The translations under genes and the position numbers were made by a program. From Savitreella phatthalungensis (Eukaryota), in contig AP039694.1 in the NCBI GenBank assembly GCA_051599415.1, positions 496,001 through 560,000 on the forward strand: a stretch of 64,000 nt of DNA, written 5' to 3'. Positions 20,361 through 57,824 of this stretch are shown here, one piece after another; position 1 is the first letter of the stretch; every line of letters begins with the position of its first letter. Below the pieces are notes generated by a model. The model did not search any database and was not told the origin of the DNA. It saw only the letters and a list, made by a program, of their open reading frames with translations.

Positions 20361-23300
20361 CTAGTGGGACTCGACAAAGGCAACAGCACGTGCCTTGACT
20401 CGTTCGACGTCGTCTTCAGATCCGTGTTTCTTCTCGAGCGCCAGCCACTTCTTGAACACGCTCTTGGCCTTCTTGACCGAGAGCTTGAGTGGGGAGGCAT
20501 CATCGAGGACTCTGACAAACAACTTACGTGCCGGTGTCAACAGCTCACCTAGAGGCAGTCGCAACGCATCGACGTCCTCTTCGTCTCCGAGAGTCTCGTC
20601 ATCATCGTCAACATCCCTGATGGGCTGAATACCTTCTGCTTTGGCTTGACGTAAGGCGGCCGCAACTTCCTGGTCGATGTAGACGAACCAGACGTCTAGC
20701 TTTTTTGGGTAGGATGCTAAGAGACCTTCGAACAAGGTCGCTCCGCGTTCAGGTTCGCCGAGATGGTACTCGAGTCTAGCGAAACGCTCCATGTGGGCGA
20801 CGTGGTCACGCTCCGGCAGTGATTTGAAGGAACGCGCATACACAGAGCGAGCGTCATCAATGCGATCCTGTTGACGCGCAAGCCAATCGGCGTACTCTTG
20901 CCAGACACGAGGGTCTGTTGATCCGAAGCGCTGGACAGCCTTCTTGAAGATTTCCTCAGCTTCCGCGTTCTTGCCAGCACGGATGTAGACGCCGGCCAAG
21001 CGAGCGTGCATGTCTCGCGGGTCGTGAGAGGTGCAAGCACGTTTGAAGACGGCTTCTAGCGTATCCTCGTCTCCGAAACTGCACTCGAGGTTGAGCAAGG
21101 CGTTGTAGACGTTGAGTTTCTCAGACAGCTCACGGTAGTGAATTGCGCCAAGAGCACGCTCGGCAATGCTTCGAGCCCGGCCGACATCAGAAGACTCGAG
21201 GTAGTAAGCCATGTAGCGCACCCAGTGGAGCGAGTTGTTTGGATCGCCGAGGACTAGGCGCTCAAAGTCTTCGGGCGTGGTAGGCTCATCGTCAATGGAC
21301 TTGACTTGACGATTGTTCTTTCGCTTCTTGTTCTTACGAGAGACTTCCCCTGCTTCGTCGTCATCAGAGGAGTCGGCGTCAGACTCGTCTGCATTGTCAC
21401 CGAAGACGTCTCCCGCATCCAGGTCGAAGCCGCCGGCCTTGACAGCAGGCGCGTCAGCGTCGCCTTCCATCGACTCATCCTCATCCACGTAACCATCATC
21501 ATCTTCTTCTTCTTCCTCCTCCTCCTCGTCATCTTCCTCGAATTCCGCATCGTCGTTATCGGCATCGTCCATGTCGACTTCACCATCGTCCTCGTCCTCG
21601 TCTTCGTCATCCTCAGCCTGCTCATTGTCATCGAAATAGGAAGCTTTAAGACCAAACGAGACACGGCGCTTTTTCTCGTCGACCTCGAGGACAATCGCTC
21701 GGACTAGATCTCCTGGAGAGTAGATCTTGGCTAGATCGCCAACGGCCTTGTCGGCAACTTGTGACTTGTGGCACAAACCGTCGATGTGGTGGTCCGTCGT
21801 GGTGAGGAAGATGCCGAAGGTCTCAATCTTCTTGACAGTCGCATCGACGATATCGCCCTTGGATAGCATCGATAGATCAGCAGCATCTGCGGAAGTGTTC
21901 CTGGCAGTCTTACCCGACGGCGTTTTCCGGAGAGAGAATTCGACACGGGAGCTCTTCGTGTCGACGGAAAGTACACGGCCCTCGACAAGCTGATGAATAG
22001 TGAAGAGGCGGCGCCAGTCCTTGACAAAATCGTCCGACAGCTCTGCAATCTTGACACGCGCAGTCACATTGCGACCGAGCTCGACAAAGAGGCCGTGATC
22101 AGCCACGTTCTTGATATAGCCGCGGTAGGTTGCACCTTCCTTGAGGTCTGCGACGGCGTTGATTTCAGGGTCCTTGGCGTTTGGCGCCGGGTCTCGCAAG
22201 GAGAGCGACAGTCGCTTGTTTGGCAGATCGATCGCCTTGACGGTGACGCTGACAACTGCATTTGTAGCAACCTGGCTTGTCGGATCGGCGATGTCTTCGT
22301 CAGCGATGTCCGTCAAGCTGACGCGACCAACAACAGACTCGCTCAATTGGACAAGTAGGCCAGACTCGAGTACTTTTGTTACGCGGCCAGGCAATTGCTG
22401 ACCGATTTTGAGTGACTTGAGGGATGTAATAGCAATGACGTCCTGGTCGACCGCGCGCTCAGAGAGATCCAGATGGTCGTTTGCGATGTCGATATTGATC
22501 ACACGCAAGTTGAGCGCCTGACCAGGCACGTAAGCCTGGTCGACGCCGGTCGACTGCGTTCCGGTTGTGAGGTCCGCAAGATCGACAAGCTTGACACGGC
22601 CACGAACCGAAGGCGACAGACTGACCCAGACAGAATCGTCCGCAACCTTGTTAACAAATCCAAGGTAGATTTTGCCCTTCTTGACCTGCCGGAGCGTGAG
22701 AACTGGAGCGTCTGCATCGGCAATAGCGGACGGCTTGAGAGAGCACTCAGCCATCGTGGAAGCGTTGCTCATTCGGTGTGTGAGCGGCAGGAACTTGTGG
22801 GTACGAGGGTCGTGGCGACCAATGATACGGACTGTGATCGTGGCGCCTGCCTGGAAGCCCTTGAGTGGATGACGCTTGTTGCGAATGTCATCTGCCGAGT
22901 CAAAGATGGAGGAGACGTCAACGCGACCGTGCATGCCGTTTGGCAGCTCGAGGTTGAGCTGAGTTTGACGGATACCAATGATTTTGGCCTGAACGAGATC
23001 ATTCACAGCTGTGCCGTTCGAGGCGCTACCGATTGTCGGCTTCTCGCGGAATGAGACAAGCAATTTGCGCTGAGCAGCATCTACGCTCGTAACGGTTGCC
23101 TCAATCGATTGTGAGGGCCGGAAGACGGAGGCTGGCGTTGCAATGTATTCTTCCGCGAGCTCGCTTTTGAGACAAAGACCAGTCAGGCCGTGAACGAATT
23201 GCACGAGGACACCGTAGTCGTAGACCTTGGCGATCGAGCCAGCATACTTGAAGCCAACCTTTGCATCTTCGAGCTCCTTCAGCAGAGTGTTACCTTTGGC

Positions 23301-25601
23301 TGCACGCACGAGGGATGGCTTGGCTGACAGAATCAGCTGACCTTGAGAGACGTTCTTGCCAATAATGACAGCCTCTTTGAGGTGGCCACCGACGCGAATG
23401 CGTTTGAATGCCTTCTCGCCTTTCTCCTCATCGCCGTCGGCAAAGTGGCCAGCTTCAATCGAGCCTGTGAGCTTCTCGCCCTCGACATGGACACTGACGA
23501 CTGCATGGTCCTTCGTCTTGTCCGTGAAGTCGCAAGCGACGATGGCTCCTATCTCGGCACTGCGAAGTGTGTCTACGTCGACCGAAGCGCCAGCCTTGCA
23601 CGAGACAACCATTCGTCTGCGCTCCACGTCAACCTCGATCACGCGAACATTCACAGTCTGTCCAACTCGGAAATGCTCGCGAGGATCAGCAATGTGCGCC
23701 TCGCTCATCTGACTGACAGGCAGGAATGCTTTCGTGTTGCCGTAAAAGTCGACGAGAGCACCTTTGTCGAGAAGTTTGGAAATGACAGCCTGAGTTTGCT
23801 TGCCGAGAGCTGCGCGTGAGAGCTCTGACACGATGTCTTCGGTGTCGACATTGATCCAAGACTTCTTCATAGTCATATTGACATTCTGCCTGGTAGGGTC
23901 AAGCGACAGAATCTTGCCCTTAACGTCGCTACCGACCTTGAACTTCTGCTCAGGGAACTGGAGCTTGACGTCGGCAACATGCAATTCCGGGACGCGAGCA
24001 ACAAGGGACTTAGACAGTCGCACGAAGACTGCTCCATTGCGTACGGCTTCCACCTTGCCCTTGACGAGCTGGCCGACGTGGAGATCAGCAGTGCTGAAGA
24101 GCTTCGATTGAACGACTGAAGGCTCTGTTGAGATGCTAAGCACGCCATCCAGTGCGTTGAAGCCGACGACACGAGCAGCGTGGCGTGAGCCAATTTTGAA
24201 GTTGCCGGATGTGGCGTCCAGTTCTTTGACCTTGTCGTCGGCAATTCGAGAGATGTGGACAAAGCCTGGGGTGCTTTCGAGGCCGACGTTGGCCCATAGC
24301 CCCAGGTGCGGAACAACAGAGGTGATGGTGACTGAGTCCAGAACCGTGCCGTAAGGAAGCGCCTCGCTGGGGTTTTGGGCCTTCGTGGCATCGGCGCTGG
24401 GCGATTTGAGGTTGAGCACGAGAGACAAGATCGAGACGGCTACTTTGCGCTCGCCATCGACATCATTGCAGAAGAGAACACGGGCAGGGATTCGTTGGCC
24501 GAGAGTGACAGAGCCGCTCTTGAGACCTTGACGAGCGTGGAATGGATCGCATGTTACGTCCTGTAAGCCGAAAGCGCGACCGACAAAGCCACCGCCTTCC
24601 TGCTCATCTGTGGGCACGACATCGATGCAATCGCCCGGCAGCAGAGCCCTGACATCCACGAGCTCTTTGACGCGGAGTTTCGTGGCATTGTTCTGGATAG
24701 CTGGGGTGAGCTGAAGGACTTTGCCGTTCTTCTCGACCTCCAATACGCGACAGAGGGTTACCTGGCCCTCTTTGAGCTTTGTCTCACCAAGTTGTTTGCT
24801 CTTGATGAAGCCTGTGCTGCCTTCGATGCCAGTCTCTACAACAATGCCGTGGTCTTCAACGCTGCGGACTGAAACCTGGACGAGCGCATTCTTTTGCACA
24901 GTACGGCGATCGTGCCCAGCATTGACAACGGAGGGCTTGAGAGTCAGATCGATTCTGTTCTTCTTGCTTGCGTCCTTGCCCTGTTGCGGTGTAGAAGCGA
25001 TGACAGAGGTGCGAAGATACTGACCAGGCGCGAATAATGTGGTCAGCTTTGGTAGGTCCGGCAGATCCATGTCATCATCATTATCCGAGTCGTCCACGCC
25101 TTCCACAAGCTTCGCCAGCTCATCCGAGACCTCGACGAGGGAAACAAAGCCAAGCAAATTGTTCGGCAGAGCGATGACAAGGTCGTCATTGTTGACAGCC
25201 GAAATTTGACCAAGAACCTGTGTTCCCTGTGTAGCTCGTTTATATGACAATCCGGCAGCGTGTTGGACTGTACCATCTACTGGCTTCTTTCCCGTGCCTC
25301 CTGACTTGCGCTTCTTGCTCTTGTTTGACTTTGTGGCAATAGCTCCGGTTGAGCCACGGCTGATGTCATTGTCATCGACATCCTCGTCTTCACCATCGTC
25401 CAAGAATGCTTCCCTGCGAGCTTCTTGTGTAGCTTCCTTATACTCTAAAGGTGTGAGAGAGCTACCTCCACCACGTGGGAATGCTGCCACTTCAGTCTTG
25501 GATGTCAATGTAGCAGGACGGGTCTGTGTAGTTGGAAGAGCGGTGGAGGGTGTTCCGGTTGATTCCCTCTTGCGCTTCTTTGTCTCTGCGACAGGAGCCA
25601 T
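20361..25601 (-). CDS. RRP5: rRNA biogenesis protein Rrp5 (S1 repeats + HAT/TPR)
   Basis: FPRGGGSSLTPLEY, many S1 domains, acidic linker, DFERLVLGDPNNSLHWVRYMAY, FKKWLALEKKHG; 1746 aa. Confidence 0.97.
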   Translation of the reverse strand: MAPVAETKKRKRESTGTPSTALPTTQTRPATLTSKTEVAAFPRGGGSSLTPLEYKEATQEARREAFLDDGEDEDVDDNDISRGSTGAIATKSNKSKKRKSGGTGKKPVDGTVQHAAGLSYKRATQGTQVLGQISAVNNDDLVIALPNNLLGFVSLVEVSDELAKLVEGVDDSDNDDDMDLPDLPKLTTLFAPGQYLRTSVIASTPQQGKDASKKNRIDLTLKPSVVNAGHDRRTVQKNALVQVSVRSVEDHGIVVETGIEGSTGFIKSKQLGETKLKEGQVTLCRVLEVEKNGKVLQLTPAIQNNATKLRVKELVDVRALLPGDCIDVVPTDEQEGGGFVGRAFGLQDVTCDPFHARQGLKSGSVTLGQRIPARVLFCNDVDGERKVAVSILSLVLNLKSPSADATKAQNPSEALPYGTVLDSVTITSVVPHLGLWANVGLESTPGFVHISRIADDKVKELDATSGNFKIGSRHAARVVGFNALDGVLSISTEPSVVQSKLFSTADLHVGQLVKGKVEAVRNGAVFVRLSKSLVARVPELHVADVKLQFPEQKFKVGSDVKGKILSLDPTRQNVNMTMKKSWINVDTEDIVSELSRAALGKQTQAVISKLLDKGALVDFYGNTKAFLPVSQMSEAHIADPREHFRVGQTVNVRVIEVDVERRRMVVSCKAGASVDVDTLRSAEIGAIVACDFTDKTKDHAVVSVHVEGEKLTGSIEAGHFADGDEEKGEKAFKRIRVGGHLKEAVIIGKNVSQGQLILSAKPSLVRAAKGNTLLKELEDAKVGFKYAGSIAKVYDYGVLVQFVHGLTGLCLKSELAEEYIATPASVFRPSQSIEATVTSVDAAQRKLLVSFREKPTIGSASNGTAVNDLVQAKIIGIRQTQLNLELPNGMHGRVDVSSIFDSADDIRNKRHPLKGFQAGATITVRIIGRHDPRTHKFLPLTHRMSNASTMAECSLKPSAIADADAPVLTLRQVKKGKIYLGFVNKVADDSVWVSLSPSVRGRVKLVDLADLTTGTQSTGVDQAYVPGQALNLRVINIDIANDHLDLSERAVDQDVIAITSLKSLKIGQQLPGRVTKVLESGLLVQLSESVVGRVSLTDIADEDIADPTSQVATNAVVSVTVKAIDLPNKRLSLSLRDPAPNAKDPEINAVADLKEGATYRGYIKNVADHGLFVELGRNVTARVKIAELSDDFVKDWRRLFTIHQLVEGRVLSVDTKSSRVEFSLRKTPSGKTARNTSADAADLSMLSKGDIVDATVKKIETFGIFLTTTDHHIDGLCHKSQVADKAVGDLAKIYSPGDLVRAIVLEVDEKKRRVSFGLKASYFDDNEQAEDDEDEDEDDGEVDMDDADNDDAEFEEDDEEEEEEEEDDDGYVDEDESMEGDADAPAVKAGGFDLDAGDVFGDNADESDADSSDDDEAGEVSRKNKKRKNNRQVKSIDDEPTTPEDFERLVLGDPNNSLHWVRYMAYYLESSDVGRARSIAERALGAIHYRELSEKLNVYNALLNLECSFGDEDTLEAVFKRACTSHDPRDMHARLAGVYIRAGKNAEAEEIFKKAVQRFGSTDPRVWQEYADWLARQQDRIDDARSVYARSFKSLPERDHVAHMERFARLEYHLGEPERGATLFEGLLASYPKKLDVWFVYIDQEVAAALRQAKAEGIQPIRDVDDDDETLGDEEDVDALRLPLGELLTPARKLFVRVLDDASPLKLSVKKAKSVFKKWLALEKKHGSEDDVERVKARAVAFVESH

Positions 25602-25651
25602 GGTTGTCAGATAGGGAGCTCACAGCCCTTTGACAAGCGAAATGACTACTG

Positions 25652-25659
25652 TGTGACTG
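25652..25659 (-). promoter_or_regulatory. HomolD-like box (CAGTCACA) upstream of RRP5
   Basis: TGTGACTG on the + strand, about 50 bp upstream of the RRP5 ATG. It matches the S. pombe HomolD core promoter element. Confidence 0.45.
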
Positions 25660-26062
25660 GCCTTGCACTGCTGCTGCTGCTACTGCTACTGCTGCACAAG
25701 AGTATCTCGAGTGTTGACTTATGTGTTCGAGTGTGTGCCTGAAGTGCCTGTTCTCAAGTCAAGCTTGATCCAATATCGATATCATGTACTGTACAGTATA
25801 TGCATTGTGTGATCGGGCACGTGTTTACCATCTCAATGCGGGATGCTCGATTCCATACGGGGATCGATGGAGCTTATGGACGAGTGTTCAGGAAGCTACT
25901 CAGTCGCAGCTGTGGATTCACAAGGATAGCTAGTCACAGCTCGACGGATCGACTAGCACGAGAGATTGATTCCTGGAAGGCTAGTTCTGTTTGATATCAT
26001 CACTCGCAAAACTCTTCTATTAACTTGATCAGACACGGCAGACCATAGACGTATTCTCGGAC

Positions 26063-27853
26063 ATGACTCTGCCGATATCCGCTGATGACGTGGTAGCAGC
26101 TGCAGATCGGATCAAGGATCACGTTCACAAGACACCTGTGCTGACGTCCACATTCATCGACGAGCTTGCATCAACGTTGACGCAAAAGCGAAGGCTGCTC
26201 TTCAAATGCGAGCATTTGCAGAAGATTGGTGCTTTCAAGATCAGAGGAGCCACGAACGCGCTTCTGCTCACGAGTGCAGAAGACCGTGCAAAGGGAGTCG
26301 TCACACATTCATCTGGCAATCATGCTCAGGCTTTAGCGCTCGCTGCAAGACAGCTCGGCGTCAAGGCTACGATCGTCATGCCAAGTACTTCACCACAGGT
26401 CAAAAAGGATGCAGTTCGTGGTTATGGTGCTAAAGTGGTCGAATGTGAGCCGACTCTTGAAGCGCGTGAGACCGAGTGCCAAAAGATCATCGACGAGACC
26501 GGTGCCACCTTCATCCACCCTTACAACGACCCGCGAGTGATGGCAGGACAAGGAACACAAATGCTTGAGCTACTCGAACAAGCTGTCGAGATCGGTAGGC
26601 CCCTAGATGCAGTCCTCATACCTCTAGGCGGCGGAGGCATGCTCAGTGGATGTGCTACAGCTGCAAAAGCCGTATCACCGTCCACTAAGGTGTTCGGCGC
26701 AGAGCCGCAAGAGGCAGATGATGCATACCGATCATTCAAATCTGGCGAGATCCAGGCGCCTGTGCCTCCAAAATCAGTTGCTGATGGCCTGTTGACAGCA
26801 CTCGGTCCGAACACGTTCGCCGTCATCATGGACAGAGTAGACGATATTTTTCTTGTTACCGAGGAACAGATCATCAGGGCTATGAAGCTCGTTTGGGAGC
26901 GGATGAAGCAGGTCATTGAGCCATCCGGCGCTGTTGGCTTGGCTGTGGCATTATACAACGAGAAGTTCCGTGCTCTCGAAGGTATTTCCGACATTGGCGT
27001 CATCCTGTGTGGCGGCAATGTGCAGCTTGATCGGGCGATGAAGCTGTTTGCAAACCTGGATCAGCAAATTTCCCCAGCCACGCAACCAACCACAAGGTCA
27101 GTAATCCTCCTCAAGACAAAGTCGACGCCAAAAGACCCTTACGAGTCAGAGTTCATGTCTCGTGGCTACAAGCCATACTTTGTGCCTGTCCTCTCGCACG
27201 CCATGGTGAATTTGGCTGACTTGCAACAGAGATTAAGTGCTATTGACCAGTACAGCGGCTTGATTGTGACAAGTCAACGCTCCGTAGAGGCTGTCGCGGA
27301 CATGATCGCAGCTCTGACGACTTCACAGAAGACTGCTCTACTACAGAAGCCAGTCTACACGGTCGGACCCGCGACTCATGCGGCAATCTCTCGCATTGGG
27401 TTTTCCGACATCCGAGGCAGCGAGTCCGGTAATGGTGACGCTCTAGCGACTTTCATTCTCCGCGAGCGACCAGAAAACGAGATTCGTCCATTTTTCTTCA
27501 TTGTCGGCGACAAGCGACGAGACATCATTACAAAACGCATGGCTGCCGCTGGAATTCCGCTCGAAGAGCTTGTGGTGTACGAGACTGTGACAGCTTCCAC
27601 GTTCATCTCGGACTTCCAGAGTGCGACTATGGATGCAGGAAACAGCATTGAATGGCTCGTGTTCTTCTCACCCGCAGGAGCAGACGTCGCCCTCGAGTTT
27701 GTCAAACGGTCAGGAAATCGAACTCGGATCGCCACGATTGGTCCGACTACATACGACTACTTGGTCAACACCTGGAGCATCACACCACAAGTCGTCTCGC
27801 CAAAACCAGAGCCTGTGTCACTTGTAACTGCACTCGTCAATCACTCTGTATGA
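26063..27853 (+). CDS. Fusion: serine racemase/dehydratase (fold-type II PLP enzyme) + uroporphyrinogen-III synthase (Hem4/HemD)
   Basis: aa 1-~330 carry KCEHLQKIGAFKIRGA, HSSGNHAQA, GGGGML, EPSGA and LCGGN. aa ~345-596 carry VILLKTKSTPKDPY, GLIVTSQRSVEA, VYTVGPAT, SGNGDALA, GDKRRDII, ELVVYET, VFFSPAG and ATIGPTT. One continuous ORF. Confidence 0.92.
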   Translation: MTLPISADDVVAAADRIKDHVHKTPVLTSTFIDELASTLTQKRRLLFKCEHLQKIGAFKIRGATNALLLTSAEDRAKGVVTHSSGNHAQALALAARQLGVKATIVMPSTSPQVKKDAVRGYGAKVVECEPTLEARETECQKIIDETGATFIHPYNDPRVMAGQGTQMLELLEQAVEIGRPLDAVLIPLGGGGMLSGCATAAKAVSPSTKVFGAEPQEADDAYRSFKSGEIQAPVPPKSVADGLLTALGPNTFAVIMDRVDDIFLVTEEQIIRAMKLVWERMKQVIEPSGAVGLAVALYNEKFRALEGISDIGVILCGGNVQLDRAMKLFANLDQQISPATQPTTRSVILLKTKSTPKDPYESEFMSRGYKPYFVPVLSHAMVNLADLQQRLSAIDQYSGLIVTSQRSVEAVADMIAALTTSQKTALLQKPVYTVGPATHAAISRIGFSDIRGSESGNGDALATFILRERPENEIRPFFFIVGDKRRDIITKRMAAAGIPLEELVVYETVTASTFISDFQSATMDAGNSIEWLVFFSPAGADVALEFVKRSGNRTRIATIGPTTYDYLVNTWSITPQVVSPKPEPVSLVTALVNHSV

Positions 27854-28150
27854 TGGCATGCAGTCCAAGAGGCGGCTCAGTGGCTTAATTCTTGGTCCTG
27901 AGTAAAGCGACGTCCAGCATACTTTCGATCTGCATTCAGTTTTATCTTTTCAATCAAGTATTTCATGACCCCCACGCACGCGAATTGATCAAGATGCAGA
28001 GTGCCCGAGATGGAATCCAAGCAGTATATTTGCGTCATAGTGAATTGGTCGTAAAGGACGTGTTGTTCGGCGCACCATCTGGCAGACCGCGTCGTTTGGC
28101 GTAGTACCGATGGTTTGCCCCGGCTAAAAGGGGGCGAGAAGGCGTATATT

Positions 28151-29698
28151 ATGTCGCGTCTGGGCCATGCCCCTATCACAGAAGCATACGCCAGCCTGTT
28201 GTCTCGCGGAGTGATGCGTCCTGATCCCCTCCAAGCAGCTCTCGTCGACCGCCTGGCGAAAGTCCAGCTGTCGGTACTCGACCCGGTGCACTACAAGGAT
28301 GGCCCCGGAGATGGGCGCATCCGGGGATTGTACGTCCACGGTGGCGTGGGCACGGGTAAGACAAAGCTTGTGGACTTGTTCCACTCGACGCTGTCGAGCT
28401 CGATTGGCAGTGGTTCTGGCGGTCACGGTGGGATGAGCGGGTCAGCTGTGCGGACGCGGCGGGTACACTTTCATGATTTTATGCTCTCAGTTCACGCGCG
28501 CCTGCACGCGCTCAGGACACAGGCAGACGCCGCTCTGTCCGGGATGTCGGTCCTCGAGGCTGTGGTCGCGCGACAACGCAGAGCGGCTGCTGCAGCGGCA
28601 TTGGTCGATCCGCTCGTGACGCTCGGACGTCAGATTTTCCTGGAGTCTCCCGTTCTCGTGCTCGATGAGTTCCAGGTCAGCGATATTGCGGACGCCATGA
28701 TCCTGAAGAGATTGTTCCATAGCATCTGGAATCCACTGACTGGCAACCAGGAAGATGACAGGGATGTCAACAGTACGCTCGGAAAACTTGGGGCAGGGGT
28801 TCTGGTGGCTACAAGTAATCGTCCACCGCGCGACCTATATGAAAACGGTCTCAATCGAGGGCTATTTTTACCTTTCATTGATGAGCTCGAGCAGATGTGC
28901 GACGTCTGGCCGATGAATGGCAAGGTCGACTACAGACTCGGCCGCCCGCGGAAGAAGCGATCCAGTAGATCCGGAGACGGCGGCAATAGTACAGACGACT
29001 CCGCAGTCGAAACGTTCTTCCTAGATCGCGCTCAATTTGACGCTGCGCTTGAAGGCGAGCTCGCCGGTCGTCCTTTGCAGGTGGCAACGTTGCCTATCGG
29101 CATGGGTCGCTCGCTTGACGTAAGTCTGACTGCAGCTACAGAGGATGGCGAACGGATCGCACACGCATCCTTCCGACAGCTATGTATGGCTAGCCTGTCG
29201 CCACTCGACTACCTCGGCTTGTGCAAGCACGTCGACGTGCTGTACATGTCGGATCTGAGACCATTGAGGGCTGATGAGCTGGATTTTGCCCGTCGACTGA
29301 TCACACTCATCGACGTTGCGTACGAGCGACGCGTTCGAGTGGTGTGTCAATCGACTGCGCCGCTCGCACATACATTTGCGGCGCTCGTACCAGGTGGTGC
29401 TCCGGTGATTGTGCAAGCGGCTGCAGCTCAGGCAGCTGCCGCACACGACGAGGGCGATCTGAGCGAGCGCAAGGCCGTGGCGCGAGGCATTGCAGAGATG
29501 ACTGTCAAGGGCGAGGGAGGTGCATCGTCGAGCAAATCAGCCACGTATATCGGCGAAACCGAATGGTCGGCCACTGGGCTTCCTGCATCGTTGGCACAAG
29601 GCGGCGCAGGTGAGACAGATGTTCGTTTCGCCGTGGGTAGAGCGATCTCTCGGCTATATGAGATGGCCTCGGCTGATTATGGCCTTCATGTAGAATAG
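28151..29698 (+). CDS. AFG1/LACE1/ZapE-family AAA+ ATPase
   Basis: [13 protein letters not shown] (Walker A), [26 protein letters not shown] (Walker B), [26 protein letters not shown]. Start codon uncertain. Confidence 0.92.
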
Positions 29699-40253: not shown

Positions 40254-41621
40254 ATGTTCTGGCTCGCGAAGGTAGCTCTGCTGCATCAAGGCGCTTTGGT
40301 TGCAGGTAATGTCGGATTCATGCTATCCTCAAATTCTGGCATTGACATCCTGCGCCTCCTGCACCCATCAGTAGAGCAAATCCTGGTCAATACTGGCTGG
40401 GTCGAGAAACGCTTGTACGACGTTAACATAGTCGCAATTTCGTCAGATTGCCCTCAAAGCGTCAAGGCAGCGCTGGAGGCAACACGCGGTCTGGATGTCT
40501 CTCAAAACGATGCCGTCACAATGCTTGGCTGGCAATGGGATTTTGATGCACCATGGCATTTAGCCAGGCTCAACGCAGACGATTGGGACTATGATCTTCC
40601 GATAGATCCAACTCGCTCGATGTACTACATTCATGATTCCGAAGAGCTTGGACAAGGTGTGGATGTCCACATCATCGATACCGGCGTCGATAAGGCAAAC
40701 TCTTTCTTCGGCGGGCGAGCAGTGCCCCGAGGCCCAGGCCGTCGAGGTAGACAGCTCGAAGACCAGGATGCAGACGGTCATGGTACCGCTGTCGCCGGAT
40801 TGGTAGGCTCTGCCAAGCACGGCGTCGCACGAGGTGCCAAACTCGTCACCTTCCGTTGCAAGGTGGACGAACGCATGCCATGTACCGTCTTCAAGGTACT
40901 CGAGTATATGGAGGCTGTCTGGGAACGACGTCGTCGTGTGGCATTAAATCATGAGCGGACGACTGCAATCGAGATGATGCTCCTGCCCTTCAAGGTCGCT
41001 CGGAATCACGCGCTCGACATGGGCGTAAAGCGAACGATCGCTTCCATCGTTCCCATAGTGGCCCCTGCGGAGCCGGTCAGTGCAAATACCTGCGAAGTCT
41101 CGCCGCAGCGATCCGACTACTCGATCGTTGTCGGAGGATTGACGCGCAAAGATGCGACGATCGGGGGAAGACGACTCGCTCGTTGTGTCGACGTCTATGC
41201 GCCAGCAGAAATGCTTCTGACAACTGGGATACAACCGAACGCGAATCGTTACTCGCGTCCAAACCACGATTCGGAACTTTACGTATCCGGAACAAGTTTC
41301 AGCGCCGCCATCGTCACAGGAGTACTGGCGGTGCACCTGCGTCGTATTGTCCAGGATTTTCGCATCAATAGGCAAAACGGTGTTCATCGGATGGTCAGGC
41401 AATATCTATGGAATAATCTCGTGCTGGAAGGGAAGATAACGGGCGCAGCCAGATACAACTCTCCGTCCAACAGGATAATCCACTACATGCCGGAATCCTT
41501 CAAGCAATGTTGGCGGGATGAGCACGCGCACGAACTTTTCCCCGAACCGCTTCAGGACGCTGTCATGCAGGATATCACGCGTCCCACCGGCGTGTGCTCA
41601 CCAACAAATCTTATCGGGTGA
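40254..41621 (+). CDS. Divergent subtilisin-like (S8, proteinase K-type) protein, copy 1
   Basis: APWHLARL, GQGVDVHIIDTG (Asp), DGHGTAVAG (His), CVDVYAP, SGTSFSA (Ser). Lacks the AAGN motif. Confidence 0.85.
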   Translation: MFWLAKVALLHQGALVAGNVGFMLSSNSGIDILRLLHPSVEQILVNTGWVEKRLYDVNIVAISSDCPQSVKAALEATRGLDVSQNDAVTMLGWQWDFDAPWHLARLNADDWDYDLPIDPTRSMYYIHDSEELGQGVDVHIIDTGVDKANSFFGGRAVPRGPGRRGRQLEDQDADGHGTAVAGLVGSAKHGVARGAKLVTFRCKVDERMPCTVFKVLEYMEAVWERRRRVALNHERTTAIEMMLLPFKVARNHALDMGVKRTIASIVPIVAPAEPVSANTCEVSPQRSDYSIVVGGLTRKDATIGGRRLARCVDVYAPAEMLLTTGIQPNANRYSRPNHDSELYVSGTSFSAAIVTGVLAVHLRRIVQDFRINRQNGVHRMVRQYLWNNLVLEGKITGAARYNSPSNRIIHYMPESFKQCWRDEHAHELFPEPLQDAVMQDITRPTGVCSPTNLIG

Positions 41622-41756: not shown

Positions 41757-43400
41757 ATGCCGTCTCCTGCGGGCTTGGTTATCCAAGTGGGCTTGGCTGC
41801 GGCATCAAGGATGAATGAGATATTCTTGACCACACCGAATGGAAGTCCGCTGCTGGACTTGCTACACCCGCAGTTGATCAGAGGATTGCACGCGTCGCAA
41901 GCGATCCAGCATCACTACTCTTATCTGAATGGGTACCGGCTTCATGATTCCTTGACACAAGCTCAGCGATTCGCTCTCCATGCCACTCGAGGTATCGATG
42001 TTTCGCCGAACGACGAATTCACGTTCTCCAAATGGCAGGTTCAACGTGACAGCCCCTGGCACCTTTCCCGACTCAACGCGCAGAGTCCACCGCCTTCTGA
42101 GCTTGCGCGCTTCGGCCTAGACGGTGCGTATGTCTACGATTCGGCGTACGCTGGCCAAGCGACTGAATTGATCTCACTGGACTCGGGCGTTGATTGCGGC
42201 AATGACTATCTCTTCCCACGCGTGGTATGCTACAATCGAGGTAAAGCGCTGCGCGACTGGCCTGGTATGGACATACACGGCCACGGCACCGGCGTCGCAG
42301 GCTTGGCGGTCTCGAGTCGACACGGTGCGGCGCGCGAAGCTCATGTTCTACCAATTAACCTGCTCATCGAAGGCTCTCCGCCACGAGTGGATACTGTCCT
42401 TGAAAGCATCAGCAAGGTGTTACAACGGCTCGACAGTTTCTCGATGATACAGAGATCTTCCAAGGCATTCGTCGCAGTCATAGCGGCGGAAATGCGTGGC
42501 AATCTAGCGCTGGACATGGGCGTGATGCACTTGTTGCATTCGGGTGTGCTGGTCGTTGCTGCTGCAGGCAATATGGGTGAAGATGCTTGCAATTTCTCCC
42601 CACAACGTGTGCCTATGGTGCTGACAGTCGGGGGAGTGTCACCGGACGACACATTCTCGTCGTTCTCAAATCATGGAAGCTGCGTCGACATACTCAGTCC
42701 CAGTGAAATGATGCGTAGCACGGCTCATTTGAAGGGCTCGACCCACTTATCAGCGCATGCAACTCATCACAGTCTGGAAACGCTGGTGACCGGAACGTCT
42801 TTTGGCGCAGGTGTTGTCGCTGGTGTCGCTTTGTTGCACGCCCTTCGCTTCGCCCGCCTCCATAGTAGCCGCATCGCCGAATCGCTATCATTCTACCTTG
42901 TCAGGCATGCTGCACTGCACGGACAGATCAAGGGCCTTCCGCCAGATACGCCAAACAAGCTCATTCACTATCTGCCGAAGGACTTCGAGGCTGCTAAGGC
43001 CCGAGGATTCGTGGACGAAGCAGGAACATCTGGCAAGCATGACAGATCCGAAGACGACGAGCGCACCGCCGAGGGTCGGGCGAGGAAGAAGGGTAAAATG
43101 CATTCTTCGTCAGTGTATGACGAGGTTCCGAGTGGGCAATCTATCAGCGACTACCTGATTGGCAAACCCAGCGTTCGAGACGTTGAACCCTGGAAAGGTG
43201 GTCCCGAGCCATCAACTATCCACGTTGCAAACCCTGCAGCGCCCCAGCAAGACGAGCAGCTCGAAGTCTGGTTCGAGCCTGATGAGATTTCCCAAATCAT
43301 GGGCAGCATCGATGATGATGATGACGACAATGAAAGCTTTAGCCGTTCACTCTCGTCCTCAAGTCTGCACAGTAGACCCAGTGGCAAACGAGCTCAGTAA
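41757..43400 (+). CDS. Divergent subtilisin-like (S8) protein, copy 2, with disordered C-terminal extension
   Basis: SPWHLSRL, SLDSG, HGHGTGVAG, VAAAGN..DACNFSP, FSNHGSCVDILSP, TGTSFGA, TPNKLIH, then a charged tail of about 140 aa. Confidence 0.87.
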   Translation: MPSPAGLVIQVGLAAASRMNEIFLTTPNGSPLLDLLHPQLIRGLHASQAIQHHYSYLNGYRLHDSLTQAQRFALHATRGIDVSPNDEFTFSKWQVQRDSPWHLSRLNAQSPPPSELARFGLDGAYVYDSAYAGQATELISLDSGVDCGNDYLFPRVVCYNRGKALRDWPGMDIHGHGTGVAGLAVSSRHGAAREAHVLPINLLIEGSPPRVDTVLESISKVLQRLDSFSMIQRSSKAFVAVIAAEMRGNLALDMGVMHLLHSGVLVVAAAGNMGEDACNFSPQRVPMVLTVGGVSPDDTFSSFSNHGSCVDILSPSEMMRSTAHLKGSTHLSAHATHHSLETLVTGTSFGAGVVAGVALLHALRFARLHSSRIAESLSFYLVRHAALHGQIKGLPPDTPNKLIHYLPKDFEAAKARGFVDEAGTSGKHDRSEDDERTAEGRARKKGKMHSSSVYDEVPSGQSISDYLIGKPSVRDVEPWKGGPEPSTIHVANPAAPQQDEQLEVWFEPDEISQIMGSIDDDDDDNESFSRSLSSSSLHSRPSGKRAQ

Positions 43401-54674: not shown

Positions 54675-57600
54675 CTAGGGCGACGGTGGAGCGTAGGCAG
54701 GGGTCTGACCGCCGAGAGCCGGTGCTTGAGCCCTCCTGCTCGGATGGATATCGCCTTCCCAGTCGTCAGTACCATTGGATGCTTGCGTTTGTCCTGGTGG
54801 TCTGTGAGCCGGAGTCCGCGCACCGTAGTTGTCAGTCGGTGCGTATGCATCCGTGTTCGGGCCTCCCCTGCCGCCGCCACCATATGCTGACTGCCCCGCG
54901 TCATACGATGCTCCATACCCGCCGCCGCCGCCGCCGCCGCTGTTGTACGCCGGTGTTCGACCGCCAGCGTTGTAGGCAGGTGTTCGTCCACCTCCTGCAT
55001 TATAAGCCGGTGTTCTACCACCAGCATTATACCAGGTAGGAGTCTTCGATCCAGCATTCCAGGCAGGTGTAGCACTGCCCGCTCCATTCCAAGCGGGTGT
55101 CGCACTGCCCATGCCAGCACCGTTCCACGCGGGTGTTTGAGCGCCGCCGCCCCATGCAGGAGTCTTCGCACCACCGGAAGCGCCCCATCCAGGGGTTCGG
55201 GAGCCTGAAGCTCCCCACGCCGGAGTGCGAGCACCGGAGGCTCCCCAGGCGGGCGTACGAGCGCCGCTGTACGTGCCAGCTGCCGGAGTCGCGCCGCCAC
55301 CGGCAGACGTACCGGCTGCGCGAGCCCAGGCGGGACGCGCGGCATCGTTGATCCGAGGCATCGGCGCGGCACCGCCGCTCGAGGACGAGGATGAGAAAGA
55401 TGCACCACCCGAGCGCTGTGCAACGAACTCTGCATATCGCATCATTGCGCCACCACCCTGCCGACGGAAACCGAGTTTGTCCTTCGGCACGTTGATGGTC
55501 TTCGTGCCAGACTGCAGCTCGAGCTTGACATGTGTATCCGTGGACGACTTGATCAGGCCAGCGATGCCCTTGTGCGGACCGGAAATGACACTTGCCGTAA
55601 CGCCGATAGCCCGATCCCGACCAACGGTCTTGGGCGCGGCTGCAGGGGCCGCCATGGCTGGAGCACTGCCAAGAGCCGGATTCATCTTGCTGAAGTTGAT
55701 ACCCCGAGCACCAGCCAATGAGTTCAGATTCTCGATCTGATTCGGCCGCAACACGAATATACCGTTGTCCTTGACGAGAGCCAAATCGCGAGCAAACACC
55801 TTGCCGAGATGAATCTGGATAACTGTGCCTTTCCGGTTCTCGCCATCTGTTTCACGAATCTTGTCTCCGACGCGGACCTCATTGCCATTCCGATCAGTCG
55901 TCGCTGCAACGCGGCCTCGAGGCTGACTGAGCTTCATGCTGATTGCATCACTATTGACAGTGCGCACCCCCGTACCGTCGCCCATCAGGACCCTGATCAG
56001 GTCGCCCTCGAGCCGGATGACACAGCCAAATTCGCTAGCGTTGAGGGCGACAAGCTCTTCGACCTCGTACTTCGCACGCACGGGCATCGCAGAATTCTCA
56101 CTCACCTCGCCTAGGTCGCGCGCGAAGACCGAGACTTCCGTGTTGGTCATGTCGCTCATGAAGGTAACGTTCCCGCGCTCCGTGGACAGGACGAGACCGG
56201 TCTCGCCTGCATGTTTGCCTGCCTGGACACGGACGTGAGACCCCACTGCGAATTGTTTCCGAAGACCGTTGACGGGCACTGAAAGGTTGCCAAGACCGTC
56301 TTCGGCAGTCTCGATGGTAGCGACATTGTTTGAAATCGATTTCACTTTTCCCACAACACCAGCCTGTTCGCCAGACGTAACCTCGACTGTGTCGCCGAGT
56401 GCAAAATTATTTGTTCTCAGGCCGTTCTGCAGCCCCGTCAAATCGAATGAGGCAGAATCAGTCGGGAAGTTTTTCAATTCGTCAATAGTGGGCTTGACAT
56501 CTTCTTGAATCAGGTGCTCCAGCTTGAAGTCCTTGATAAGATAGCCATCCTCATAACGGTCCCCGTTGAATTCGTAAATTCCATCACCGCCTCTTACGCG
56601 CTGACCGGAAGTTCGTTCAGCGTCTGTGGCGTTGAAGAATCTGGCGGGAGGGCGCTCGTTTGTTGTGATGTTTCTCTTCAATATGGCCTCACTACTCGAG
56701 TAGTCGATCCGCGGTACGATCTTCACACGAGCTTCAAGCCCATCGGGGTGGATGTCGTCGATTTGAGCGAGGTCGCCAGCATATCGCTTATTGCGCTTGC
56801 TGACGCGCACGTATGAGCCAGGAACGAGCTGCGTTCCTGACTCACGAACGCGCAGCAGCGATGCCATCTCAGAGACCTCGACAAGATGAAGTTTGGAGGC
56901 ATACAGATTGCTGACGTCCTTGACAGCTTCCTGCACATGAGACTGCTTCCAGGCCTCGACATAGATCCAGCCAACGAGGGCGTCGCGCTGGAATGCAGAA
57001 ACGATTTCCAAGGGCGTGTCCGTGTACTCGAGATCTGCCTGCTTCCTCAAAAGGTTGAAGATAATCTCTTGTTCCTTTCCGATCTTGCAGCGCATTCCCC
57101 ATATTGATGGATCTTGCACAGAGGGCAGCAGTAGACGTTGGGGCACAACAGTCGTGTCGCCGCGATATTGTGTTTGACTCTTTCCATATTGCTCTCGATA
57201 TCGGGCAGCGAGTTCCTGGGCATTCAGACTGTCGATCTCCCTTCGCTTCTGATCGAGCTCGCGGTGGCGGCGATCGTCCTCACGATTTGCGGCGCCGTCG
57301 ACGTCCTCAGGATCGTTAGCAATAAAGTCCTGATTCAACTCCTGCTCTTCCTCCTCGTCGTCCAAGTCTTCGTCGTCGTCATCGACTTCGGCCTCTGCGT
57401 CAATGAAGGCTGAAACATTGCCACGTCTATGCTTCTTTCTTCGCCGATCTGTGACTGCGTCTTCGTCTTCTTCGTCGTCTTCTTCATCCTCGTCCTCATC
57501 TTCGTCATCGTCGGCATATTTCCGCTTAGCGGGCGTGGCTTCATCGATCTCATCGTCTAGCTCATCTTCATCCTCGTCTTCCTGCGGTCGAGGTATAGCT

Positions 57601-57824
57601 CGAGGCGCGTCGTTGTCCTCATCCTCGTCCTCGTCCTCGTCCTCCTCTTCTTCCGCCTCGTCATCCTCGGCTTGAGTATCAGCAGCGAGTGACGCCGCCA
57701 GTCCCTCATCTACATCGTCCGCGCCTTGTACAGGACGAGGAATATCGACTTCGTCCACTGTCTCCTCCTTCTTCGGAAGCACTGGGGTAGAGGAAGAACC
57801 CGCCGTTGAGTCAGACGTCGACAT
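54675..57824 (-). CDS. SPT5: Transcription elongation factor Spt5
   Basis: Acidic N-terminus, LLLPSVQDPSIW, NGN domain (GWIYVEA), YAGDLAQ, KOW motifs and C-terminal TPAW/TPAY repeats. Confidence 0.97.
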   Translation of the reverse strand: MSTSDSTAGSSSTPVLPKKEETVDEVDIPRPVQGADDVDEGLAASLAADTQAEDDEAEEEEDEDEDEDEDNDAPRAIPRPQEDEDEDELDDEIDEATPAKRKYADDDEDEDEDEEDDEEDEDAVTDRRRKKHRRGNVSAFIDAEAEVDDDDEDLDDEEEEQELNQDFIANDPEDVDGAANREDDRRHRELDQKRREIDSLNAQELAARYREQYGKSQTQYRGDTTVVPQRLLLPSVQDPSIWGMRCKIGKEQEIIFNLLRKQADLEYTDTPLEIVSAFQRDALVGWIYVEAWKQSHVQEAVKDVSNLYASKLHLVEVSEMASLLRVRESGTQLVPGSYVRVSKRNKRYAGDLAQIDDIHPDGLEARVKIVPRIDYSSSEAILKRNITTNERPPARFFNATDAERTSGQRVRGGDGIYEFNGDRYEDGYLIKDFKLEHLIQEDVKPTIDELKNFPTDSASFDLTGLQNGLRTNNFALGDTVEVTSGEQAGVVGKVKSISNNVATIETAEDGLGNLSVPVNGLRKQFAVGSHVRVQAGKHAGETGLVLSTERGNVTFMSDMTNTEVSVFARDLGEVSENSAMPVRAKYEVEELVALNASEFGCVIRLEGDLIRVLMGDGTGVRTVNSDAISMKLSQPRGRVAATTDRNGNEVRVGDKIRETDGENRKGTVIQIHLGKVFARDLALVKDNGIFVLRPNQIENLNSLAGARGINFSKMNPALGSAPAMAAPAAAPKTVGRDRAIGVTASVISGPHKGIAGLIKSSTDTHVKLELQSGTKTINVPKDKLGFRRQGGGAMMRYAEFVAQRSGGASFSSSSSSGGAAPMPRINDAARPAWARAAGTSAGGGATPAAGTYSGARTPAWGASGARTPAWGASGSRTPGWGASGGAKTPAWGGGAQTPAWNGAGMGSATPAWNGAGSATPAWNAGSKTPTWYNAGGRTPAYNAGGGRTPAYNAGGRTPAYNSGGGGGGGYGASYDAGQSAYGGGGRGGPNTDAYAPTDNYGARTPAHRPPGQTQASNGTDDWEGDIHPSRRAQAPALGGQTPAYAPPSP
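54940..55300 (-). repeat. Spt5 C-terminal repeat region (G[AS]xTPA[WY][GN])
   Basis: About 12 coding repeats such as GARTPAWG, GSATPAWN and GGRTPAYN, similar to the S. pombe TPAWNSGSK repeat. Confidence 0.85.

Follow-up and report, generated by a model that had tools for sequence, protein, structure and literature searches.

In human MOCS1 a single locus supplies two enzymes of a cofactor pathway, and its splice forms encode either the upstream protein alone or a two-domain fusion that supplies the downstream enzyme; as described there, MOCS1A and MOCS1B serve one pathway step and the MOCS1AB fusion is cleaved in mitochondria (bioRxiv 10.1101/429183). Aco2-L21 of Schizosaccharomyces (Taphrinomycotina) unites unrelated housekeeping genes through a linker that evolves fast, and alternative RNA processing yields either the fusion or its N-terminal enzyme by itself, the latter through an internal polyadenylation site; according to the same work, worked examples of functional alternative splicing in fungi are few (bioRxiv 10.1101/2019.12.16.879015). 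Arabidopsis BIO3-BIO1 is a chimeric two-enzyme gene of cofactor synthesis, with one bifunctional product whose activities are described as consecutive steps of one pathway (PMC11616359), and Leptospira HmbS-UroS joins neighbours of the tetrapyrrole pathway (bioRxiv 10.1101/2021.02.09.429727). The locus described here joins a serine racemase to uroporphyrinogen-III synthase (UroS, here Hem4). Like MOCS1 and Aco2-L21, it carries two separable domains in one frame, and one sequencing run, X2, which is not recorded as RNA, holds both skipped and unskipped contigs across the junction. It differs from MOCS1 in having unrelated partners and in the proposed retention of an intron that lies over coding sequence, and from Aco2-L21 in its partners, its lineage and the proposed use of a frameshifting intron to make the short form. 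Unlike the BIO3-BIO1 activities, the racemase and Hem4 are not consecutive steps of one pathway, and unlike in HmbS-UroS, the Hem4 domain is joined to an amino-acid enzyme here and to a protease in the related protein P0276. By analogy with MOCS1 and Aco2-L21, the RNA-processing principle would be a known one and the partners new: among the open-licence papers listed, neither a racemase-Hem4 nor an insulinase-Hem4 fusion was seen described, although supplements of Taphrinales genome papers may list the architecture.

The gene lies in a window of 64,000 nucleotides (the whole stretch of DNA analysed), between RRP5, which is divergent from it, on one side and a gene for an AFG1-like ATPase on the other. 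Its features are the following:

26063..27853, + strand: racemase-Hem4 fusion frame, the proposed intron-retained product (translation, Pfam, AlphaFold2)
26063..27067, + strand: serine racemase/dehydratase domain, residues 1-335 (Pfam PALP; K59, S84, R135, E214, D220 and GGGG loop)
27038..27040, + strand: Met326, with no later in-frame ATG ahead of the Hem4 domain; candidate internal start in helix 322-335
27068..27094, + strand: Q/P/T linker, residues 336-344, of low model confidence
27095..27853, + strand: uroporphyrinogen-III synthase (Hem4) domain, residues 345-596 (Pfam HEM4)
27097..27229, + strand: candidate optional 133-nt intron over the first 44 Hem4 codons (run X2 joint, motifs)
27234..27236, + strand: TAA ending the spliced frame after residue 346 (in-silico splice)

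The region from 26063 to 27853 translates on the + strand as a single stop-free frame of 596 aa, as an earlier note on this DNA, made from the letters alone, had read it; the same note had claimed two complete domains, and both Pfam matches do cover nearly the whole length of their profiles. PALP extends over residues 18-317 (E 1.8e-74) and HEM4 over residues 360-588 (E 1.4e-39; 136 bits, where the cut-off is 27.5; positions 3-230 of the 231 in the profile). Its positions were also exact, with codon 345 (AGG, arginine) at 27095-27097, Met326 at 27038 and a GTCAGT at 27097. AlphaFold2, run on a 52-row alignment in which about 25 N-terminal residues are misplaced in the rows of stand-alone Hem4 proteins, predicted two confident domains (mean pLDDT 94.3, pTM 0.65) with a linker below pLDDT 50 at residues 337-342, and these values suggest that the domains have no fixed mutual arrangement. 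The Q/P/T character that the earlier note gave to this linker holds for the present protein, and the linker is not conserved among its fused relatives: it has some 13 residues in the present protein and some 25 in P0004, and is almost absent from P0002, P0003, P0005 and P0006. As to a protease site in the linker, dibasic pairs are found in some relatives and none here, and this candidate was rejected.

The PALP match spans the whole racemase half, and the closest solved chains are serine racemases (fold type II PLP enzymes), namely those of Dictyostelium (6lut, 319.8 bits), mammals (3l6b, 292 bits) and Schizosaccharomyces pombe (1v71, 258.9 bits). Because the first two outscore the S. pombe enzyme, racemase-type is a better description than Sry1, so that of the double label given earlier, Sry1/serine racemase, only the second part is retained. 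The alignment to human 3l6b and the residue table show K59, S84, R135, E214 and D220 kept in the fusion protein, the first two in the motifs where the earlier note had pointed out a PLP lysine (GAFKIRG) and a racemase serine (HSSGNH). Their human counterparts are K56, the PLP lysine and si-face base, S84, the re-face base, R135, the substrate anchor, and the metal ligands E210 and D216 (PMC6424897). One loop reads HPYN in the fusion and HPNQ in the human enzyme. Judged by this family match and these residues, the N-terminal half is a predicted serine racemase/dehydratase. The three solved serine racemases share fold and catalytic residues with it and, among the chains listed, none has a Hem4 domain. 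A six-frame profile search of this genome gave six PALP matches; the other five resemble what we take to be Ilv1, two cysteine-synthase-type enzymes, Trp5 and Thr4, which leaves the fusion locus as the only racemase-type gene found. Under the same presumptive labels, neither Sry1 nor a Ser/Thr dehydratase of the catabolic kind is apparent among the matches other than the fusion gene.

The Hem4 half matches human UROS (1jr2) over the whole domain with E 1.8e-29, and the motifs to which roles are assigned in this family (TSxR, VGxAT, the Y of VYxT, FFSP and IGPTT) are all present. By its agreement with the family, the C-terminal half is a predicted uroporphyrinogen-III synthase. Hem4 is required for heme synthesis, and whether this is the sole copy was among the checks that the earlier note had asked for. 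In six-frame searches, which work exon by exon on an assembly that may be incomplete (12.7 Mb, 27 contigs), the HEM4 family has one match, at the fusion locus, and the Hem4 of Saitoella used as query likewise matches only there with E up to 1. Hem3, Hem12 and Hem15 have one match each elsewhere in the genome, and the pathway therefore looks intact and in need of this Hem4 domain. Where UroS is missing, ring closure of the bilane leads to isomer I, a dead end (bioRxiv 10.1101/2021.02.09.429727).

The possibility that the two halves are separated in the RNA is raised by a set of motifs at the junction and by one contig. The donor GTCAGT at 27097, the branch motif GCTGAC at 27215, which lies 9 nt ahead of the AG, and the acceptor CAG ending at 27229 fit what we take to be the fungal intron consensus. 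Synonymous resampling of the junction produced a set of donor, branch motif and acceptor of this kind in 70 of 5000 draws, and 4 of 437 windows taken from 25 other frames contained one, with a motif set that was chosen after the site was seen. Four runs (X1-X4) were aligned to 25600-28300, of which X1 and X2 come from the same sample. X1 gave a single contig of 120 kb that shows neither differences nor a joint, whereas X2 gave two contigs at this place, both without other letters: one of 191 nt that runs through the junction (27067-27257) and one of 58 nt that joins 27094 to 27228, skipping 133 nt. When the cut is shifted by +2, the skipped piece is 27097-27229 and has GT..AG ends; this joint is one contig from one sample, with 28 letters on its shorter side and a likeness of 80. 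The stop or frameshift at the junction that the earlier note had named as the sign against a fusion is absent from the X1 contig and from the X2 junction contig. Run X2 is listed as 'DNA?' and has no library record, and from the GT..AG ends and the intron motifs at the joint we infer that it is RNA; a DNA deletion with exactly such ends would be unlikely. With X2 taken as RNA, the GTCAGT at 27097 appears to be a working splice donor.

In-silico removal of the intron shifts the frame and leaves a 346-aa protein ending in TTRD. As the donor falls at the first Hem4 strand in the AlphaFold2 model (residues 345-351), the spliced product would be the whole racemase with its linker, close in length to its stand-alone relatives (333-345 aa). 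The earlier note had seen in the GTCAGT a chance of alternative splicing beside a Hem4-only isoform: the joint lies exactly at 27097, as it proposed, and the product is racemase-only, not Hem4-only. Moreover, the next ATG behind the spliced stop is that of Met414, downstream of the conserved TSQR at 403, and a start there would lose this motif, which makes Hem4 from spliced RNA implausible, so that only the retained RNA could supply the enzyme. Mean intron length in Taphrina is 48-51 nt (PMC4007546), against which 133 nt is long and would fit weak splicing.

Some other uses of these data were tried and rejected. A search for RNA runs over the stretch came back empty, which is evidence neither way. 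The X2 contigs start 53 nt ahead of the ATG, finish 75 nt past the stop and leave a gap towards RRP5; this looks like a transcript, but holes between filtered contigs prove nothing, and it was not counted. Nor can the depths of the X2 contigs (80.9 for the upstream, 97.7 for the unskipped, 107.1 for the skipped and 344.3 for the downstream one) serve as a splice ratio or as a sign of an internal start, because they cannot rank parts of a gene. Runs X3 and X4 hold parts of one half each at contig depth below 5, with the junction not spanned, and 12 of 13 differences in X3 and 4 of 7 in X4 are synonymous. A strict-motif scan of the window gave no candidates for other introns, and a scan with looser motifs gave 11 unvalidated rows, which offer no yardstick for donor strength. 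A 7822-nt X2 contig begins at 27962, 189 nt before the AFG1-like ATG, and would cross several genes on both strands; neighbouring transcripts would therefore overlap, if X2 is RNA.

It is probable, in our judgement, that the locus is one transcription unit with two products, in which a Hem4 without a start codon of its own is carried on the racemase gene and is expressed through partial retention of a frameshifting intron. In a Taphrinales-like lineage HEM4 would have lost its own start and been added, in frame, to the end of the gene for serine racemase. A weak 133-nt intron beginning at the first Hem4 residue would be removed only sometimes: its removal would shift the frame to an immediate stop and give a normal 346-aa racemase, and its retention would give the 596-aa fusion, the retained RNA being the sole source of uroporphyrinogen-III synthase. 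Joined by a loose linker, the two domains would each fold and function on their own. Serine racemase is described as a dimer (PMC6333871), and mixed dimers with zero, one or two Hem4 modules would thus be expected. The racemase would be a carrier rather than a metabolic partner, lending its promoter, its start codon and perhaps stability. The last of these is a speculation that follows from the reported heat-lability of UroS (bioRxiv 10.1101/2021.02.09.429727), which the carrier might counteract. Under the same proposal, the dose of Hem4 would be set by splicing efficiency.

The fusion is not private to this genome. The same in-frame join was found in five other proteins, and the six fused proteins are 61-82% identical pairwise. 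Both domains occur in 6 proteins (query included) among the best 120 of 7346 matches, and the same six two-domain proteins came out of a search with the Hem4 region among proteins of 327-1043 aa (55 matches), proteins above 1043 aa being covered through the best 150 of a representative search. Of the 424 proteins collected, 268 match the racemase profile, 162 the Hem4 profile and 6 both, which answers the earlier call for a survey of the PALP+HEM4 architecture and bears out its suggestion of a lineage-specific fusion, confined here to one Taphrinales-like group. The nearest named Hem4 proteins are those of Protomyces lactucae-debilis (53%; annotated as partial, without a start Met) and Saitoella complicata (49%; with its own Met), by which we place the genome, on sequence likeness, in Taphrinomycotina and near Taphrinales. 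The stand-alone racemases P0007-P0012 form one clade with the fused ones (100/99), and a clade of the fused racemases on their own was not rejected (p-AU 0.28); a further tree, of 30 rows, was only a quick one. Searches of a viral collection (51 pattern matches, none a relative) and of the ESM Atlas (no usable match) added no further members.

The donor is less constant than the join. At the amino-acid level, judged from protein sequence, one of 13 listed donors could be encoded in the nine positions before the Hem4 strand in 2 of the 5 fused relatives (P0005 and P0006), which against a base rate of 35% is the level of chance. No listed donor can be encoded there in P0002, P0003 or P0004, of which the first two are the closest relatives; these three have a compatible site elsewhere in the stretch that reaches from 30 residues ahead to 45 residues behind. 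The fusion is therefore old, and the splice switch at this exact site may be younger. Among these proteins P0006, whose sequence starts at THSSGN and whose Hem4 contains an insert of 14 residues, is probably an intron-containing gene read by a caller that ignores introns.

A related Hem4 was also found in a second host. P0276, P0421 (1229 aa) and P0420 (1336 aa), from three contigs of 9-14 kb, are M16 proteases of the insulinase/Ste23 type with a complete internal HEM4 domain. This block (residues about 712-975 in P0276, about 260 residues) has neither Met nor stop of its own in any of the three, no Met lies within the 45 residues upstream of it, and it is a clean in-frame insert when compared with the insert-free insulinase of this genome (1138 aa, contig C3). 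A 23-row Hem4 tree groups the P0276 domain with all six fused domains, the partial Protomyces model and a fragment (84/94), and inside this group the branching order is not fixed. At the amino-acid level the start of the P0276 block can encode a donor, and the block may be a spliceable intron. The partial Protomyces Hem4 (P0124, ORY86312.1) has no start Met and ends where the P0276 block ends, and it may also be embedded in another gene. A start-less Hem4 in two unrelated hosts argues against a special link between racemase and heme; the constancy of partner seen in the HmbS-UroS kind is lacking here, and the partner looks interchangeable, more as in hitch-hiking than in metabolic coupling. 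One may go further and suggest, tentatively and with more doubt than confidence, that HEM4 in Taphrinales is a start-less passenger expressed only from retained introns of unrelated hosts, with at least one change of host: in one group it would sit at the end of serine racemase, in another in the middle of Ste23/insulinase. In each host splicing would give the plain host protein and retention the heme enzyme, and the splicing efficiency of the host gene would set heme and siroheme synthesis.

The reading that competes most directly with partial intron retention places a second promoter inside the racemase gene, so that translation from Met326 would yield a Hem4 of 271 aa preceded by a short leader, while the splice would provide the racemase with its stop and the fusion would be a minor by-product. 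Met326 itself speaks for it and against the splice switch, since this position holds Met in 5 of 6 fused proteins against 1 of 6 stand-alone racemases, with Val in the two outgroups shown (Fisher p 0.08, on rows that are not independent), and no further in-frame Met lies between it and the Hem4 strand. However, P0002 has Leu there, the insulinase hosts P0276 and P0420 offer no upstream Met to a Hem4 of the same group, and an out-of-frame ATG at 27018, 20 nt upstream, leaves only a narrow window for starting; in the predicted structure, moreover, Met326 would lie within the last helix of the racemase, where a hydrophobic residue is expected regardless. We therefore regard an internal start as unlikely. 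The same joint could also be a leak, or a switch towards decay by which the levels of both Hem4 and racemase fall, maybe recent and private to the species, with the fusion as the sole useful product. The premature stop, followed by 692 nt to the end of the covering contig, would suit nonsense-mediated decay, and the failure of 3 of 5 relatives to encode the donor at the same place would suit a recent origin. Against this, the cut leaves a complete racemase that ends where its stand-alone relatives end, and in X2 the skipped form is a contig of its own beside the unskipped one and not a rare variant, so that a leak or decay switch seems to us quite improbable.

A selected bifunctional enzyme, in which racemase/dehydratase chemistry, with D-serine, pyruvate and 2-aminoacrylate, would be coupled to heme synthesis by contact or co-regulation, could explain why the join is kept across 61-82% identity, and the earlier note had offered such a link between D-amino-acid and tetrapyrrole metabolism. 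We know of no metabolite common to the racemase and heme routes. The only link found is the reported sensitivity of yeast Hem1p to 2-aminoacrylate, a reactive enamine (PMC9127364). A linker that ranges from about 0 to 25 residues and is poorly ordered (pLDDT below 50, with a pTM of 0.65 despite a pLDDT of 94) does not favour contact, the related Hem4 rides in an unrelated protease, and the rest of the heme pathway (Hem3, Hem12 and Hem15) is encoded separately, so that the claim of the earlier note found no support and coupling appears very improbable. As for an artefact, a mis-assembly or a lost stop fusing neighbouring genes, X1 is the sole run with the whole frame in one contig and may be the source of the window DNA itself; but the same join is present in five proteins on other public contigs (Logan, ENA and NCBI), and is therefore not an assembly slip, and a separate X2 contig passes through the junction without other letters, which makes an artefact scarcely credible.

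If retention of the intron does supply Hem4, the supply of an essential core enzyme would hinge on an intron kept inside the very sequence that encodes it, and the outcome would read out simply, as one of two states. The insulinase as a second host points to one way in which genomes may be compacted, a small enzyme surrendering the promoter and start codon it once had, and a start-less Hem4 may explain why the Protomyces Hem4 is annotated as partial. Gene callers can splice away such a domain, which is a warning for annotation.

Other composite proteins were met in the same collection. P0013 of Clonostachys byssicola (852 aa) carries PALP and PF01042, presumably the RidA family, in one protein, and Dothideomycete Hem4 proteins of 617-742 aa (P0231, P0241, P0242, P0244, P0245, P0246, P0254, P0255 and P0256) have a long C-terminal part, either another fusion or merged gene models, which in P0231 gave no Pfam match. 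The window itself is very gene-dense and intron-poor: RRP5 (20361-25601, - strand, 1746 aa) is intron-free, as is a frame of 1049 aa at 54675-57824 (- strand) that we take to be Spt5-like. Finally, two tandem divergent frames at 40254-41621 and 41757-43400 (+ strand) carry DTG/DSG, HGT and GTS motifs and are presumably of the subtilisin-like family.
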